A stretch of 19,742 nucleotides of DNA, from the IMG/VR virus record IMGVR_UViG_2534681835_000041; one strand, written 5' to 3'. The position numbers and the translations under genes were made by a program. Below are positions 5,693-19,742 of the stretch, in pieces. This DNA comes from a virus (taxonomy: Duplodnaviria; Heunggongvirae; Uroviricota; Caudoviricetes). The number at the start of each line of letters is the position of its first letter. Within the stretch, counting starts at the first letter, position 1. The notes under the pieces were generated by a model. It searched no databases, had not been told where the DNA came from, and saw only the letters and a program-made list of their open reading frames with translations.

Positions 5693-6019
5693 ATGACTAA
5701 AAATACTCGTTTTTCCCCCGAAGTCCGTCAGCGGGCGATTCGTATGGTTCTGGAAAGTCAGGATGAATATGACTCACAGTGGGCGGCAATTTGTTCCATT
5801 GCCCCAAAGATTGGCTGTACGCCGGAGACTCTGCGTGTCTGGGTTCGCCAGCATGAGCGGGATACCGGGGGCGGTGATGGTGGGCTCACCAGCGCTGAAC
5901 GTCAGCGTCTGAAAGAGCTGGAACGTGAAAATCGTGAACTGCGCCGCAGTAACGATATCCTTCGCCAGGCTTCCGCTTATTTTGCGAAGGCGGAGTTCGA
6001 CCGCCTCTGGAAAAAATGA
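5693..6019 (+). CDS. IS3-family transposase OrfA (HTH, leucine-zipper)
   Basis: 108 aa '[22 protein letters not shown]...[30 protein letters not shown]'; ends in an A6 tract at 6011-6016 overlapping the orfB start. Confidence 0.9.
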
Positions 6020-6906
6020 TGCCACTGCTGGATAAGCTGCGTGAGCAGTACGGGGTCGGACCGGTATGCAGCGAACTGCATATTGCCCCGTCAACGTATT
6101 ACCATTGTCAGCAACAGCGACATCATCCGGATAAACGCAGTGCCCGTGCGCAGCACGACGACTGGCTGAAGAGAGAGATACAGCGCGTATACGATGAAAA
6201 TCATCAGGTGTACGGTGTGCGTAAAGTCTGGCGTCAGTTGTTACGGGAAGGAATCAGGGTGGCCAGATGTACAGTGGCACGTCTCATGGCGGTTATGGGA
6301 CTTGCCGGTGTTCTCCGGGGTAAAAAGGTCCGTACGACCATCAGCCGGAAAGCCGTTGCCGCAGGCGACCGCGTAAACCGTCAGTTCGTGGCAGAACGAC
6401 CTGACCAGCTGTGGGTGGCTGATTTTACTTACGTCAGCACATGGCAGGGCTTCGTCTATGTGGCGTTTATCATTGATGTGTTTGCCGGATACATCGTGGG
6501 GTGGCGGGTCTCATCGTCTATGGAAACGACATTCGTGCTGGATGCGCTGGAGCAGGCGTTGTGGGCCCGTCGTCCGTCTGGCACCATCCATCACAGCGAT
6601 AAAGGCTCTCAGTATGTGTCACTGGCCTATACGGAGCGACTAAAAGAAGCCGGATTACTGGCATCAACAGGGAGTACAGGCGACTCGTATGACAACGCGA
6701 TGGCTGAGAGCATCAATGGTCTTTACAAAGCGGAGGTAATACACCGTAAGAGCTGGAAAAACCGTGCAGAAGTGGAACTGGCCACACTAACGTGGGTGGA
6801 CTGGTATAACAATCGACGATTGCTGGGAAGGCTGGGCCATACTCCTCCGGCAGAAGCAGAAAAAGCTTATTATGCTTCCATCGGAAACGATGATCTGGCA
6901 GCCTGA
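6016..6906 (+). CDS. IS3-family transposase OrfB (DDE integrase core)
   Basis: 296 aa with the rve-type core ('WVADFTYV', 'HSDKGSQY', '[15 protein letters not shown]'); ATG at 6016 overlaps the orfA stop in the -1 frame. Confidence 0.9.
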
Positions 6907-7354: not shown

Positions 7355-7575
7355 GCTGCACCTCCGAGATGCTTCATGTTTTTTCCGGAGCGAAAGGCTA
7401 TAAGCGGCATACTGACGCGGTAATTACGGCCCAGCGGTTCACAAATCACCTTCTGGCATTCACGGTCAACCAGGCTAACACGTAGAACATGCCCTGCAGG
7501 CGTGGTGTACCACTGACCCGGACGAGGACAACGGAAAGTTTGATTGGTAAACCGTTTGAAAATATTCCGGATCAT
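7351..7575 (-). CDS. hypothetical small protein (74 aa, Cys-containing)
   Basis: ATG at 7575 overlaps the stop of the Rha-domain gene (ATGA), and its own stop overlaps the O-like ATG (ATGA). No motif recognised. Confidence 0.45.
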   Translation of the reverse strand: MIRNIFKRFTNQTFRCPRPGQWYTTPAGHVLRVSLVDRECQKVICEPLGRNYRVSMPLIAFRSGKNMKHLGGAA

Positions 7576-8735
7576 TTGCGCCCCCTTACCTCTGAAGGGT
7601 TCAGCGACAAATTTATGAGGCAGGCCAGCGCCGAAGCATCATTAATATAGTCATATAAGCTAACAGCCAGCGGAGATTCGGCTTTTGCCAACATAGGATA
7701 AAGCTGCTGCAGCCAGACCTGATGAATTGATGAAATGTAGGAATAGAGAACACTGGCGTTATGTGCAACGTCGCTCGGTACAGAGGGCTTTGAAAGCTGT
7801 TTCTCCATCTGGTTAAAGGCATTGATGTATGCCTCTTTGAACTGGGCAGCACGTTTGCCAGTGAAGCCCATTGCCAGGAACGCGAAGCCGTCGCGGGTGA
7901 TGTGGTAGCAAGGAAGTTTGCGAGTACCGCCGTTGGGCTGGTGTACCAAAATTGATGTCTCCGCAAAATTGCGGGCACAAAACTCTGGAGAACAATCCAA
8001 AATGCGGATCTTTTTCAGAACATCGTCATGACGTTTAGAGAAGAAGTCAGCAACAGCCAAAGAAGATGTAACAGCCTGACCATCAACGATGGCAATTTCA
8101 GGTTGAGAGAGGGTTGGGAGAGTAGTCATGGTGACAGCCCCGGTAGTCAGTTTTTCAGAAAACTCACCACATGGGACGCCAATCACAGAGGTGGTGAGAC
8201 GTACAGGGTTGGCGTTACCGGAGACTACCGAACCCGGCCCGACCGAAGTCGGCCCTGTACGCCCCACCATAATTTGGGCGTAGCAATGCTCATGACACGA
8301 AAAAACCGCATGAGCGCGGTTATGCTCAGTAATCAATTTCAGGACGCCAATCCCGGCACCCGCTTTATAAGGTGCCTGAACAGTGTAACGTCCCGGAATG
8401 GCAGAATCAATGTGCTGGTGGTCCTTCACACTCAACAAAATCACGCCTGAATTTCCACAAAGGACTAAAGCACTCATGCGGGTAGTCTTTGCGAAGATAG
8501 ATAACGCGCTGTGTTTCTGGCTCCCAACGAATAACATGAACATAAAGTCCTCTTCCGTCACGAAACCAGCGGTTAAGTTCCTGCACAACTCGCCCCCCAC
8601 AGTCAGGTAAAGTTCTCTGTGGTTACTTACAGCCAGGTGATTTGGTAATCTGCATTCATACCGTAACAACAGGTGTTCAGCGACGCTGACCACCAGCTGT
8701 TGCGACAAACGGTTATTTGCCGTTAAACTGTTCAT
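7572..8735 (-). CDS. Rha-family phage regulatory protein with an unusual ~200-aa N-terminal extension
   Basis: Residues ~205-300 ('PEIAIVDGQAVTSSLAVADFFSKRHDDVLKKIRIL...YHITRDGFAFLAMGFTGKRAAQFKEAYINAFNQME') match the Rha domain. The 387-codon frame is open from an ATG at 8735 that overlaps the CII-like stop (ATGA). Alternative internal start at 8129 would give a 185-aa Rha-only protein. Confidence 0.5.
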   Translation of the reverse strand: MNSLTANNRLSQQLVVSVAEHLLLRYECRLPNHLAVSNHRELYLTVGGELCRNLTAGFVTEEDFMFMLFVGSQKHSALSIFAKTTRMSALVLCGNSGVILLSVKDHQHIDSAIPGRYTVQAPYKAGAGIGVLKLITEHNRAHAVFSCHEHCYAQIMVGRTGPTSVGPGSVVSGNANPVRLTTSVIGVPCGEFSEKLTTGAVTMTTLPTLSQPEIAIVDGQAVTSSLAVADFFSKRHDDVLKKIRILDCSPEFCARNFAETSILVHQPNGGTRKLPCYHITRDGFAFLAMGFTGKRAAQFKEAYINAFNQMEKQLSKPSVPSDVAHNASVLYSYISSIHQVWLQQLYPMLAKAESPLAVSLYDYINDASALACLINLSLNPSEVRGRK

Positions 8736-14316: not shown

Positions 14317-15207
14317 TCAGGCTGCCAGATCATCGTTTCCGATGGAAGCATAATAAGCTTTTTCTGCTTCTGCCGGAGGAGTATGGCCCAGCCTTCCCAG
14401 CAATCGTCGATTGTTATACCAGTCCACCCACGTTAGTGTGGCCAGTTCCACTTCTGCACGGTTTTTCCAGCTCTTACGGTGTATTACCTCCGCTTTGTAA
14501 AGACCATTGATGCTCTCAGCCATCGCGTTGTCATACGAGTCGCCTGTACTCCCTGTTGATGCCAGTAATCCGGCTTCTTTTAGTCGCTCCGTATAGGCCA
14601 GTGACACATACTGAGAGCCTTTATCGCTGTGATGGATGGTGCCAGACGGACGACGGGCCCACAACGCCTGCTCCAGCGCATCCAGCACGAATGTCGTTTC
14701 CATAGACGATGAGACCCGCCACCCCACGATGTATCCGGCAAACACATCAATGATAAACGCCACATAGACGAAGCCCTGCCATGTGCTGACGTAAGTAAAA
14801 TCAGCCACCCACAGCTGGTCAGGTCGTTCTGCCACGAACTGACGGTTTACGCGGTCGCCTGCGGCAACGGCTTTCCGGCTGATGGTCGTACGGACCTTTT
14901 TACCCCGGAGAACACCGGCAAGTCCCATAACCGCCATGAGACGTGCCACTGTACATCTGGCCACCCTGATTCCTTCCCGTAACAACTGACGCCAGACTTT
15001 ACGCACACCGTACACCTGATGATTTTCATCGTATACGCGCTGTATCTCTCTCTTCAGCCAGTCGTCGTGCTGCGCACGGGCACTGCGTTTATCCGGATGA
15101 TGTCGCTGTTGCTGACAATGGTAATACGTTGACGGGGCAATATGCAGTTCGCTGCATACCGGTCCGACCCCGTACTGCTCACGCAGCTTATCCAGCAGTG
15201 GCATCAT
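14317..15207 (-). CDS. IS3-family transposase OrfB (copy 2)
   Basis: Identical 296-aa translation to 6016-6906. Confidence 0.9.
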
Positions 15208-15530
15208 TTTTTCCAGAGGCGGTCGAACTCCGCCTTCGCAAAATAAGCGGAAGCCTGGCGAAGGATATCGTTACTGCGGCGCAGTTCACGATTTTCACGT
15301 TCCAGCTCTTTCAGACGCTGACGTTCAGCGCTGGTGAGCCCACCATCACCGCCCCCGGTATCCCGCTCATGCTGGCGAACCCAGACACGCAGAGTCTCCG
15401 GCGTACAGCCAATCTTTGGGGCAATGGAACAAATTGCCGCCCACTGTGAGTCATATTCATCCTGACTTTCCAGAACCATACGAATCGCCCGCTGACGGAC
15501 TTCGGGGGAAAAACGAGTATTTTTAGTCAT
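15204..15530 (-). CDS. IS3-family transposase OrfA (copy 2)
   Basis: Identical 108-aa translation to 5693-6019. Confidence 0.9.
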
Positions 15531-17450: not shown

Positions 17451-18203
17451 ATGAACCTTGAAGCCTTACCGAAATATTACTCCCCGAAATCTCCAAAACT
17501 GAGCGATGACGCACCGGCGACAGGCTCTGGTGGTTTAACAATTACGGATGTGATGGCTGCGCAGGGGATGGTGCAGTCAAAAGCACCGCTTGGGTTTGCT
17601 TTATTCCTGGCAAAAGTTGGTGTTCAGGATCCTCAGTTTGCGATTGAAGGTCTGCTCAATTACGCGATGGCACTGGATAACCCGACATTGAATAAATTGA
17701 GTGAAGAAACCCGGCTACAGATCATTCCTTACCTTGTGAATTTTGCCTTTGCTGATTATTCCAGGTCTGCGGCAAGTAAGGCTCGCTGTGAGCATTGTGC
17801 TGGTACTGGATTTCATAATGTATTGCGCGAGGTGGTGAAACACTCCAGAAGCGGGGAATCTGTTATTAAGGAAGAGTGGGTGAAGGAACTATGTCAGCAT
17901 TGTCATGGTAAGGGAGAAGTCAGCACAGCATGCAGAGGGTGCAAGGGTAAAGGTATTGTCCTGGATGAAAAAAGAACCCGGCTTCATGGCACGCCTGTTT
18001 ATAAGGTTTGTGGGCGTTGCAATGGAAACCGGTTTAGCCGTTTACCAACCACACTGGCGCGGCTTCATGTCCAGAAGCTGGTACCAGACCTGACGGATTA
18101 TCAGTGGTACAAAGGATATGCAGATGTCATTGATAAACTGGTTACAAAGTGCTGGCAGGAAGAAGCATATGCAGAGATACAATTGAGAAAGGTGACAAGA
18201 TAA
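17451..18203 (+). CDS. putative late-gene antiterminator (Q-like), with four CxxCxGxG repeats
   Basis: Position immediately upstream of a pR'/tR'-like promoter-terminator pair and the tRNA island. Contains CEHCAGTG, CQHCHGKG, CRGCKGKG, CGRCNGNR (a DnaJ-type zinc-finger pattern). ATG at 17451 with GGAG upstream. Function inferred mainly from context. Confidence 0.45.
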   Translation: MNLEALPKYYSPKSPKLSDDAPATGSGGLTITDVMAAQGMVQSKAPLGFALFLAKVGVQDPQFAIEGLLNYAMALDNPTLNKLSEETRLQIIPYLVNFAFADYSRSAASKARCEHCAGTGFHNVLREVVKHSRSGESVIKEEWVKELCQHCHGKGEVSTACRGCKGKGIVLDEKRTRLHGTPVYKVCGRCNGNRFSRLPTTLARLHVQKLVPDLTDYQWYKGYADVIDKLVTKCWQEEAYAEIQLRKVTR

Positions 18204-18234
18204 ATGGTTTTCGCCGAAGATGACGACATGATGC

Positions 18235-18263
18235 TTGCATTTTTCAAAAAATATGGATAAGAT
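18235..18263 (+). promoter_or_regulatory. candidate pR'-like late promoter
   Basis: TTGCAT (18235-18240), 17-bp spacer, TAAGAT (18258-18263), 32 nt after the Q-like stop and about 45 nt upstream of the terminator. Confidence 0.4.
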
Positions 18264-18309
18264 TTTCCCAACGATGGGCTTTGTATGTCTACCGTTGATA
18301 AGATTTAAG

Positions 18310-18333
18310 AACCCGCCGATGCGCGGGTTTTTT
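18310..18333 (+). terminator. rho-independent terminator (tR'-like)
   Basis: Stem aacccgc / gcgggtt followed by a 6-T run. Confidence 0.65.
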
Positions 18334-18513
18334 GTACCCAGAATCCTGTGAGCTATACGGAAAGTACACAGAAAGGAAGGTGCGACCACAATTAATAACA
18401 AAATCTTAAAAATTGCACATGGCACTATTAGTTTTCTAAATATTGTGTATTTTTTGTATTGCAGGATGACCCTGTAACGAATTTTGCGTAACAGCATTTT
18501 GCTCTACGAGTTT

Positions 18514-18542
18514 GCCAGCCTCCCCCAGTGGCTGGCTTTTTT
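18514..18542 (+). terminator. second rho-independent terminator
   Basis: Stem gccagcc / ggctggc, 9-nt loop, TTTTTT at 18537-18542. Confidence 0.6.
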
Positions 18543-18544
18543 AT

Positions 18545-18664
18545 GTCTGTAGCGTCAAAGCAGCAATGTCGCTGGGGCGTCGTGCAATTGGCGTTGAGCT
18601 GGAGACTGAACGTTTTGAGCAGACGGTCAGGGAAGTTCAGGATTTAGTCAGTCAGAACGGATGA
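18545..18664 (+). pseudogene. C-terminal remnant of a DNA methyltransferase gene
   Basis: Translates to '...AMSLGRRAIGVELETERFEQTVREVQDLVSQNG*', which looks like the extreme C-terminus of N4/N6 DNA methylases ('GRR.IG.E' motif). No upstream body of the gene is present. Confidence 0.4.
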
Positions 18665-18666
18665 TA

Positions 18667-18695
18667 TTGCAGGATTAGTTACGTACCGTTATTAT
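18667..18695 (+). promoter_or_regulatory. candidate promoter for the tRNA cluster
   Basis: TTGCAG (18667-18672), 17-bp spacer, TATTAT (18690-18695); tRNA 5' end at 18705. Confidence 0.45.
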
Positions 18696-18704
18696 CCTGC
18701 GCCC

Positions 18705-18780
18705 GGCCCTTTAGCTCAGTGGTGAGAGCGAGCGACTCATAATCGCCAGGTCGCTGGTTCAAATCCAGCAAGGGCCACCA
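18705..18780 (+). tRNA. ileZ: tRNA-Ile2 (anticodon CAT, lysidine type) or tRNA-Met
   Basis: 76-nt cloverleaf folded by hand: acceptor ggccctt/aagggcc, D-stem gctc/gagc, anticodon loop ctCATaa, T-loop ttcaaat, encoded CCA. Close to my recollection of E. coli ileX. Symbol given by analogy with the Stx-phage ileZ-argN-argO cluster. Confidence 0.85.
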
Positions 18781-18789
18781 TATCACATA

Positions 18790-18866
18790 CCGCCATTAGC
18801 TCATCGGGATAGAGCGTCAGCCTTCGAAGCTGGCTGTGCGGGGTTCAAGTCCCCGATGGCGGTCCA
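18790..18866 (+). tRNA. argN: tRNA-Arg (anticodon TCG as read here)
   Basis: 77-nt cloverleaf: acceptor ccgccat/atggcgg, D-stem gctc/gagc, anticodon loop cTTCGaa, T-arm cgggg-ttcaagt-ccccg, encoded CCA. Symbol by analogy. Confidence 0.8.
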
Positions 18867-18879
18867 TTATCAGCATCAT

Positions 18880-18956
18880 GCGTTGTTAGCTCAGCCGGAC
18901 AGAGCAATTGCCTTCTAAGCAATCGGTCACTGGTTCGAATCCAGTACAACGCGCCA
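18880..18956 (+). tRNA. argO: tRNA-Arg (anticodon TCT, reads AGA)
   Basis: 77-nt cloverleaf: acceptor gcgttgt/acaacgc, anticodon stem attgc/gcaat with loop cTTCTaa, T-arm actgg-ttcgaat-ccagt, encoded CCA. Symbol by analogy. Confidence 0.85.
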
Positions 18957-19243
18957 CACCACACTTATCTGCCCTGACTCTCTTTTGCGGGCTTTTTATT
19001 ACAGGAAAGACACCGGACAGTGAAATGTTAAATGCCTCACAATTCAGGTAGTCGACTGTTGCCTGACATGCTGAGCGTTTGTTAAAAAAATCCTGCATGA
19101 TGAATCCCCCTGGGCGGCGGGGCATAATGACAGATGTTTGGTTGCGTATTGTATAGGCAAGTTGCGGATTCTGTCTGGTCATTGCAGAATTCACCGGGAG
19201 GCACCCGGCATCATGCTGTATACAGAGATTAGGCATATATCCA

Positions 19244-19268
19244 GGCTCCTCATCGCAGGAGCCTTTTT
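19244..19268 (+). terminator. rho-independent terminator in the tRNA-to-nanS-p gap
   Basis: Stem ggctcct / aggagcc with 6-nt loop, followed by TTTTT. Confidence 0.6.
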
Positions 19269-19273
19269 ACATG

Positions 19274-19299
19274 CAAAAAAAGCCCGAGTAGGTTCGGGC
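19274..19299 (-). terminator. minus-strand rho-independent terminator (back-to-back with the previous one)
   Basis: Hairpin gcccga-gtaggt-tcgggc (19282-19299) preceded on + by A7 (19274-19280), which is a T-run on the minus strand. Confidence 0.45.
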
Positions 19300-19358
19300 A
19301 ACAGCATGAGATACTTGCATTGTCATTTTTATCGTGTGGATTTTAACCAGGGTTTATA

Positions 19359-19391
19359 AGGCTGCGCAACTGCGCGGCCTTTTTCGTTTTG
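19359..19391 (+). terminator. rho-independent terminator upstream of the esterase gene
   Basis: GC-rich imperfect palindrome aggctgcgca / tgcgcggcct followed by TTTTCGTTTT. Confidence 0.5.
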
Positions 19392-19478
19392 CGGGCTGCG
19401 GTTCTCCTCTTTTGATTCTCCTTGTGGCCGGACCGTGGCCCGCAACTGTTGAGGAAAATCCCGGAAAGGGGAGGAATA

Positions 19479-19742
19479 ATGGCATTTAAACACTATGACG
19501 TGGTCAGGGCGGCGTCGCCGTCAGACCTTGCGGAAAAGCTGACACACAAACTGAAAGAGGGCTGGCAGCCGTTTGGTAGTCCGGTGGCCATAACCCCTTA
19601 TACCCTGATGCAGGCGATTGCAGCAGAAGGTGATGTGGTGGTCAGTGGTGCAACTGAGCCGGATTGGTACTACGTCATCGTACTGGCCGGGCAGTCCAAT
19701 GCAATGGCTTACGGGGAAGGGCTTCCGCTTCCGGATTCATAC
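19479..19742 (+). CDS. NanS-p-like phage esterase (DUF1737 N-terminus followed by an SGNH 'GQSN' block), 5' part only
   Basis: ATG at 19479 with GGGGAGG upstream; 'MAFKHYDVVRAASPSDLAEKLTHKLKEGWQPFGSPV...' then 'VIVLAGQSNAMAYGEG'. Frame is open to the window end. Not in the ORF track because it is incomplete. Confidence 0.55.
   Translation, partial: MAFKHYDVVRAASPSDLAEKLTHKLKEGWQPFGSPVAITPYTLMQAIAAEGDVVVSGATEPDWYYVIVLAGQSNAMAYGEGLPLPDSY

Follow-up and report, generated by a model that had tools for sequence, protein, structure and literature searches.

Late-gene switch and cargo region of a probable non-Stx lambdoid prophage, with a convergent small RNA pair beside the vacant stx position

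The virus record IMGVR_UViG_2534681835_000041 (Caudoviricetes) is a stretch of 19,742 nt, here called the window, with positions counted from its first letter. From 17451 to its end it carries a Q antiterminator gene, a late promoter and terminator, three tRNA genes and the start of a NanS-p-type esterase gene. We regard this region, with high confidence, as the late-gene switch and cargo (‘moron’) region of a non-Stx lambdoid prophage of pathogenic Escherichia coli, where Stx stands for Shiga toxin. Between the argO terminator and the gene of an STnc100-family small RNA (sRNA) lies a generic cargo site, and lacking stx is one of its allelic states. A first-pass annotation had read the 522 bp between the last tRNA gene and the esterase as an empty toxin slot; about half of this interval instead consists of two convergent sRNA genes. 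Since the same sRNA pair lies downstream of stxB in Stx phages, the true vacancy is at most 109 bp (18957–19065), of which 25–39 bp are not common to Stx phages. The arrangement itself is already known: it is present in the reference enterohaemorrhagic E. coli (EHEC) genome, in prophage Sp9 of the O157:H7 strain Sakai, and the sRNA pair has been known since 2014 (Tree et al. 2014, PMC4104026). Here we establish the sequence identities, family memberships and homology breakpoints of the region.

Two convergent small RNA genes between argO and the esterase

The interval 18957–19478 does hold exactly three terminator-like hairpins, two of them back to back, as the first-pass annotation had it (plus strand 19243–19264, minus strand 19299–19282 and plus strand 19358–19381, the first two abutting on opposite strands), but it does not hold only hairpins, as two Rfam sRNA genes lie inside it. 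The fold z-scores of the hairpins range from −3.3 to −4.8. Their count alone is not above chance (3 against 2.0 ± 1.4 in shuffled sequences), and we consider them meaningful because they are conserved and coincide with modelled sRNA 3′ ends: the two back-to-back terminators are the 3′ ends of the two sRNA genes, and the third hairpin overlaps the candidate promoter of the second of these genes. The earlier view was that none of the three belongs to a gene of its own and that all serve only as late-operon terminators, which Q overrides; by analogy to lambda, Q-modified polymerase must indeed pass each plus-strand hairpin to reach the esterase and lysis genes. We hold this view to be highly improbable, as one hairpin lies on the minus strand and is unable to terminate a late transcript, two are the modelled 3′ ends of Rfam sRNA families, and RNAs with such ends were found bound to Hfq in Sakai (Tree et al. 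2014, PMC4104026).

The plus-strand gene matches the STnc100 family (RF02076) at 175.6 bits against a gathering score of 47, over model positions 1–206 of 206, and ends in a terminator whose stem at 19243–19264 is followed by a U-run to 19269 (fold z-score −4.83). The interval might encode a small protein instead of, or besides, the sRNAs: mechanical open reading frames (ORFs) cross it, e.g. at 19138–19359 (plus strand, 73 aa) and 18886–19236 (minus strand, 116 aa), the homologous stretch bears a hypothetical protein in some phage records, and a RIBOseq study reports ribosome coverage above 1 for several STnc100 copies of EDL933 (PMC5331693). There is, in our estimate, very little chance of this. 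The Prokaryotic Genome Annotation Pipeline (PGAP) calls no coding sequence here in E. coli O111:H8 strain 8E or in Sakai Sp9, the 73-aa ORF has a TTG start and crosses the STnc100 terminator as well as, in antisense, the second sRNA gene, and the covariance score reflects a conserved RNA structure. In the same RIBOseq study, other STnc100 copies had a coverage of 0.04–0.65 (four copies 1.51–3.21), and one copy was confirmed by Northern blot (PMC5331693).

The minus-strand gene belongs to the AgvB/AsxR family of anti-sRNAs. It just reaches the threshold of the AgvB model (RF02702, 56.2 bits against a gathering score of 56) and falls short of that of AsxR (RF02703, 44 against 63). Its sequence, CGATAAAAATGACAATGCAAGTATCTCATGCTGTTGCCCGAACCTACTCGGGCTTTTTTT, agrees in 50 of 51 bases with the published EcOnc03 of Sakai Sp9 (Tree et al. 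2014, Fig. S4); the sole difference lies in the terminator loop, so that the 5′ variable region, AAAUGACAAUGCA, is identical. The GcvB-target mimic CACAACA, taken from Tree et al. 2014 (PMC4104026) as a requirement for AgvB, does not occur in this anti-sRNA, which reads CGAUAAAAAUGACAAUGCA, and the mismatches to the model fall in the 5′ part of the alignment. The gene thus shares with AgvB and AsxR a conserved 3′ part of ~42 nt including the terminator, the promoter sequence, and the position and orientation, convergent with an STnc100-type gene upstream of nanS-p, whereas its 5′ variable region is neither the AgvB mimic nor that of AsxR and is of EcOnc03 type. EcOnc03 is the third anti-sRNA type of Tree et al. 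2014 (PMC4104026), reported as an Hfq-bound transcript of 51–56 nt for Sakai Sp9 only, and no target is described for it in the literature that we searched. The candidate promoter is conserved 5′ of AsxR (Sp5 and phi191) and 5′ of the AgvB-like gene of phage Lys8385Vzw.

The convergent STnc100 (plus strand) and AgvB-family (minus strand) genes lie directly 5′ of the esterase ORF. This is the layout of moron regions described by Tree et al. 2014 (PMC4104026), who found convergent sRNA pairs between a moron coding sequence and a conserved ORF in Sakai Sp3, 4, 5, 9, 10, 11, 15 and 17.

The stx position and its flanks

Aligning the region to Stx1 and Stx2 phage genomes, a check that the first-pass annotation had proposed, reveals homology on both flanks with the stx segment skipped. 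Its description of a Stx-phage-like late regulatory layout that lacks stx at the homologous position therefore stands, with the Q–pR′–tR′ module up to 99.6% and the tRNA block 94–96% identical to Stx phages, and stxAB does lie between the tRNAs and the esterase in the Stx2 phages Sp5 and phi191. These Stx2a phages (Sp5/933W type; phi191) share with the window the StxS/tR′ module, the methylase remnant, the ileZ–argN–argO block, an STnc100-type gene (EcOnc27) convergent with an anti-sRNA gene, and nanS-p. Identity to Sp5 and phi191 is 94–96% over 18310–18997 and ~76% from 19037 onwards. The homology stops directly behind the argO terminator, with 55 bp left to the stx2A start, and resumes 46 bp after the stx2B stop, so that 39 bp of the window correspond in position to 1341 bp of Sp5, made up of stx2AB and the sequence upstream of stx2A; the STnc100-family gene of Sp5 follows 75 bp after stx2B. 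Sp5 further differs in an intact argO terminator, in its anti-sRNA, which is AsxR with another 5′ variable region, and in its Q, an unrelated 144-aa protein of 933W type with its own pR′.

The Stx1a phage Lys8385Vzw has instead the same Q allele and pR′–tR′/StxS module as the window (99.6% identical over 17451–18551), and 3′ of stx1B an STnc100 gene with an EcOnc03-type anti-sRNA (Rfam AgvB, 56.6 bits) whose variable region is identical. It differs in that stx1AB follows directly after tR′ with its own promoter, with neither methylase remnant nor tRNAs; 1484 bp stand where the window has 471 bp, and homology resumes at 19023, 40 bp after the stx1B stop. A Q–pR′–tR′ module of the same kind is thus found in Stx phages (Lys8385Vzw, Sakai Sp15). 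An STnc100 gene lies directly 3′ of stxB in all four Stx phages compared (Sp5, Sp15, phi191 and Lys8385Vzw), and a convergent AsxR/AgvB-type gene scores at the Rfam gathering level in three of them, Sp15 being the one in which Rfam detected none. This position of the pair 3′ of stxB agrees with Tree et al. 2014 (PMC4104026) and later papers.

A close counterpart among the Sakai prophages is the stx-less Sp9 (ECs_1778–ECs_1781; EcOnc28, EcOnc03), which shares with the window an antiterminator gene, ileZ and argO, a 523-bp non-coding interval with the identical junction and the STnc100-type/EcOnc03 pair, and an esterase gene (DUF1737, SASA and DUF6645) followed by the lysis cassette; 18554–19742 is 93.4% identical to it. 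Sp9 differs in its antiterminator, which is another, shorter one of 176 aa, in its DNA methylase gene, which is intact, and in having only two tRNA genes, without argN. The whole window finds its closest complete match, at 99.6% identity, in a degraded prophage of strain 8E, to which it is identical through 19357 before it continues as the Sp9 allele into the 5′ end of the esterase gene. This switch of alleles at 19358 marks a recombination joint at the third hairpin.

Within the vacancy, the cargo junction spans 39 bp (18998–19036), the first 25 bp of which (18998–19022) are also absent from Stx1 phages. A tblastn search of the window with the A and B subunits of Stx1 and Stx2 returned chance-level matches only, none of them in the slot, so that neither stxA nor stxB was found 3′ of pR′/tR′ and 5′ of nanS-p. 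Aligned globally and locally to the stx segments with their flanks, the junction scored no higher than shuffled controls. The search for residual stx flanks, also proposed earlier, hence turned up none in the junction or the window beyond chance. The junction sequence is identical in Sakai Sp9 and strain 8E, and the exact 48-nt junction occurs in 54 IMG/VR prophage contigs. We considered the 25-bp piece as the scar of some other cargo and rejected this, as its 21-nt core occurs only in the same 54 contigs and one GTDB species representative; in IMG/VR and the GTDB species representatives the core was never seen in another context.

The site is not specific to the toxin. TerB and DUF3927 genes lie between the tRNAs and STnc100 in other E. 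coli genomes, which makes this a generic cargo (‘moron’) site in the sense of Tree et al. 2014, and iraM is present in the region in another genome. That related phages might normally carry unrelated genes here had been named at the outset as fatal to the toxin-slot idea, and with TerB/DUF3927 and IraM as other cargo this holds in part. As separate observations on two other E. coli genomes, the U-run of the argO terminator directly abuts AAATGTCTCACAATTCAGG in the loci L006 and L007 (1751–1790 in each), without the 25-bp piece, and in L007 an iraM gene on the opposite strand (2042–2377) stands in place of the 3′ part of the sRNA pair and so marks a second position for cargo in this region.

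How the stx-less state arose was initially framed as either pre-acquisition or post-loss; stx is indeed absent from the site, and the data decide neither polarity. That a Stx phage lost stxAB by deletion and left the flanks behind appears unlikely to us. In its favour, the homology to Stx phages extends on both flanks as far as the stx cassette, the Q–pR′–StxS module is 99.6% identical to that of a Stx1a phage, and the 25 bp missing from the tighter L006/L007 join could be a scar. Set against this, no stx-derived sequence is present in the junction or the window, the junction core has no other context, and relative to the Stx1 phage with the same Q, 471 bp are replaced by 1484 bp, which is no simple deletion. 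The same junction recurs in O157:H7 Sp9, O111:H8 8E, the 54 IMG/VR contigs and hundreds of genomes, which points to one inherited or exchanged allele rather than recurrent deletions; its uniformity across serotypes argues against recent independent deletions.

A somewhat better, still tentative, possibility is that the site is ancestrally empty and later received stx1, stx2 and other cassettes. The stx1, stx2 and TerB/DUF3927 cassettes use the same interval, their right boundaries fall within about 55 bp (window 19023, 19037 and 19077), and the stx-less state is widespread: 520 of 5426 complete E. coli genomes carry the stx-less tRNA-to-esterase interval contiguously (Sakai Sp9 is one instance), and 120 genomes do so together with the Q allele of the window. 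The absence of a contiguous interval from all 50,697 sequenced phage isolate records (0 matches) says little, as that collection is dominated by Stx phages. Pairwise breakpoints, however, give no polarity; the left boundaries differ, stx1 following directly after tR′ and stx2 after argO; and mosaicism is heavy, with joints at 18310, 18551–18554, 18997, 19023–19037 and 19358. We return to the reading of a generic cargo site with stx absence as one of its allelic states, at which cargo is probably exchanged by recombination between conserved flanks.

Flanking modules and prophage context

The features of the region are collected in Table 1. The claim of a Q-like gene is borne out: the ORF matches PF03589 (E 6.7e-53) and the lambda Q structure (PDB 7ubm, E 1.5e-37), the latter in two stretches that flank an insertion of ~40 aa, and its nucleotide sequence is 99.6% identical to Q of Lys8385Vzw. 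As in lambda, a homologous Q is accompanied by the same promoter layout and a promoter-proximal sigma-dependent pause element, AACGATGGG, at the start, and a terminated short pR′ RNA would be expected. Unlike lambda Q, the protein carries the ~40-aa insertion, which doubles the CxxCxGxG zinc motifs from two to four. A weak match to the DnaJ zinc finger in the protein lies under the family threshold. Between Q and S (holin), lambda has a short region in which orf-64 is the sole annotation, whereas here ~2.9 kb precede the holin gene, holding the methylase remnant, three tRNAs, two sRNAs and the esterase.

Table 1. Features of the region, in window coordinates
Feature	Position	Strand	Remarks
Q antiterminator gene	17451–18203	+	250-aa lambda-Q-type protein, four CxxCxGxG motifs
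Candidate late promoter pR′	18235–18278	+	TTGCAT 18235–18240, 17-nt spacer, TAAGAT 18258–18263
Promoter-proximal hairpin with U-run, early terminator-like element	18307–18334	+	−14.0 kcal/mol, z −3.98
StxS-type sRNA, putative processed 3′ part of the terminated pR′ transcript	18458–18542	+	Homology to Sakai StxS1
3′ remnant of DNA methylase gene (pseudogene)	18551–18664	+	PGAP call in strain 8E
Candidate tRNA-operon promoter	18667–18695	+	TTGCAG, 17 nt, TATTAT, then G+C-rich discriminator; read from sequence
ileZ (CAU)	18705–18780	+	ARAGORN, Rfam
argN (Arg-UCG)	18790–18866	+	ARAGORN, Rfam
argO (Arg-UCU)	18880–18956	+	ARAGORN, Rfam
Degenerate remnant of argO terminator	18971–18997	+	−6.0 kcal/mol, z −1.6
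Vacant cargo junction	18998–19036		blastn breakpoints; 39 bp where Sp5 has the 1341-bp stx2 segment
STnc100-family sRNA gene, counterpart of EcOnc27 and EcOnc28	19066–19274	+	Rfam RF02076
EcOnc03-type anti-sRNA gene, AgvB/AsxR family	19275–19334	−	RF02702; terminator stem 19299–19282 and U-run to 19275
Candidate EcOnc03 promoter	19340–19369	−	TTGCGC 19369–19364, 18 nt, TAAAAT 19345–19340
Third intrinsic terminator	19358–19391	+	10-bp stem and TTTTTCGTTTT; −18.8 kcal/mol, z −3.5; also recombination joint
Conserved long stem-loop, esterase leader	19389–19445	+	Between third terminator and esterase ribosome-binding site
NanS-p-type esterase gene, 5′ end	19479–19742	+	Ribosome-binding site GGAGG 19470–19474; 88 codons before window end

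The pR′/tR′-like pair was likewise recognised correctly. The sequence at 18235–18278 aligns to lambda pR′ (TTGACT..TAAATT..AACGATGGG) and is probably a lambda-type pR′, with a predicted start near 18270 at which the pause element is conserved (18270–18278). A consensus promoter scan called neither pR′ nor the tRNA promoter nor the EcOnc03 promoter; we assign these promoters from the lambda alignment, from conservation and from the mapping published for Sakai. Homology to Sp5 and Sp15 begins at the early hairpin, with the joint at 18309/18310; from 18310 on, the sequence is common to the pR′–tR′ region of both (98.8% identity to Sp15 over 18310–18551).

The end of this module is StxS-like. In the work of Sy et al. 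2020 (PMC7547250), the StxS transcript is 258 nt long, is cut by RNase E at GU↓AUU at +173 and ends at tR′. The window keeps the GU↓AUU motif at 18456–18460 and the spacing, the 85 nt from cut site to 3′ end equalling 258 minus 173, and tR′ consists of a stem at 18514–18536 and a U-run at 18537–18542 (fold −14.5 kcal/mol). The single difference from Sakai StxS1 is a G-to-T change at 18482. This change also holds relative to StxS2, and its position is equivalent to +198, between A193 and G202 of StxS, the two bases that Sy et al. 2020 (PMC7547250) mutated to test base pairing. The methylase remnant that follows gives no Pfam match; the call relies on strain 8E, where PGAP has a pseudogene in this position (‘DNA methylase, incomplete, missing N-terminus’), and on Sakai Sp9, where the gene is intact, as it also is in loci of avian pathogenic E. 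coli.

The three tRNA genes are confirmed, with Rfam scores of 55.9–72.5 bits. ARAGORN labels the CAU tRNA as Met, whereas it is tRNA-Ile, ileZ, both for PGAP, which annotated the identical sequence of 8E, and in the Sakai annotation. The block is colinear with ileZ2, argN2 and argO2 of Sakai Sp5, as is typical of Stx2 phages, and Sy et al. 2020 (PMC7547250) place a promoter of the tRNAs between tR′ and stx2. The argO terminator is degenerate in the window; its equivalent in Sp5 folds at −14.8 kcal/mol, and the degenerate form is also present in Sp9 and in 51 of the 54 IMG/VR loci with the same empty junction.

Downstream, the identification of a NanS-p-like esterase is upheld by the N-terminal DUF1737 domain characteristic of NanS-p (E 8.4e-17). 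The 88 codons are 96.6% identical to the N-terminus of Sakai ECs_1781 (Sp9) and 53% identical to Sp5 ECs_1207. Only the start of the SASA domain lies in the window (LAGQSNAMAYGEG, read from the translation), and the complete genes that occupy this position in Sp9 and strain 8E encode DUF1737, SASA and DUF6645. The esterase leader folds into a 16-bp stem in the window. Across ten loci from Stx and non-Stx prophages, RNAalifold keeps a 13-bp stem in nine, and 2–3 pairs show compensatory changes; the stem-loop is not an intrinsic terminator, because no U-run follows the stem.

In strain 8E, the matching prophage adjoins zur and a dusA fragment, contains two IS1203 copies and a truncated replication gene, and continues after the esterase with holin, lysozyme, Rz, terminase and capsid genes. 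As the replication gene and a helix-turn-helix gene are both truncated in the matching 8E annotation, the prophage is probably defective. Further upstream in the window, inverted IS1203/IS629 copies at 5693–6906 (plus strand) and 14317–15530 (minus strand), each with an apical loop–internal loop (ALIL) frameshift pseudoknot, bracket the early region. Rfam places a C4 antisense RNA at 8187–8274 and isrK at 8299–8375, both on the minus strand, in the 5′ third of a 387-aa Rha-family ORF (7572–8735); the start codon of this ORF may lie downstream, or the locus may be an antirepressor control region like immI of phage P1.

Proposed transcription and significance

Drawing on lambda and on published work with Sakai prophages, we envision the following course of transcription. 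In the lysogen, pR′ (about 18235–18270) would fire constitutively, and RNA polymerase would halt at the early hairpin or at tR′ (18514–18542), yielding a StxS-type sRNA. The three tRNAs would be made from a promoter of their own, and so would the STnc100-family RNA (plus strand) and the EcOnc03 anti-sRNA (minus strand), each ending at one of the back-to-back terminators. The plus-strand terminators at 19243–19269 and 19358–19391 would shield the esterase and lysis genes from this constitutive transcription. Upon induction, Q would load at pR′ at the lambda-type pause site, and the Q-modified polymerase would pass all these terminators into the genes for the esterase, holin, endolysin, Rz and structural proteins.

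Several points weigh against our reading of the region as a late switch with a cargo site. We infer the insulation by the terminators, and the transcription model for this locus is predicted from sequence. The prophage is degraded, and Q-dependent read-through may never occur in this host. The AgvB match of the anti-sRNA sits only at the gathering threshold, and the published EcOnc27 sizes of 235–247 nt put the 5′ end of the STnc100-family RNA near 19024–19036, inside the junction.

Transcription from the tRNA promoter may run through the degenerate argO terminator into the STnc100 gene. As this terminator is degenerate, the STnc100-family RNA could be co-transcribed with the tRNAs rather than behind stxB. 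The cargo state of the slot may in this manner rewire the neighbouring sRNAs, with the STnc100-family RNA co-transcribed with the tRNAs and the junction coupled to the EcOnc03 type, a speculative idea to which we give a small chance. If both points were true, toxin-less prophages would add distinct, uncharacterised Hfq-dependent regulation to EHEC and enteropathogenic E. coli hosts.

The breakpoints reveal no new kind of element, and the finding is mainly a correction: in lambdoid prophages of pathogenic E. coli, the supposed gaps 3′ of pR′ are occupied by Hfq-binding sRNA genes, which annotation pipelines omit; PGAP annotates nothing here. Many non-Stx prophages have modules in common with Stx phages, and for them it is normal to lack stx at this site. 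The shared flanks are likely recombination substrates that move stx between prophage backbones, which makes precise breakpoints useful for typing.

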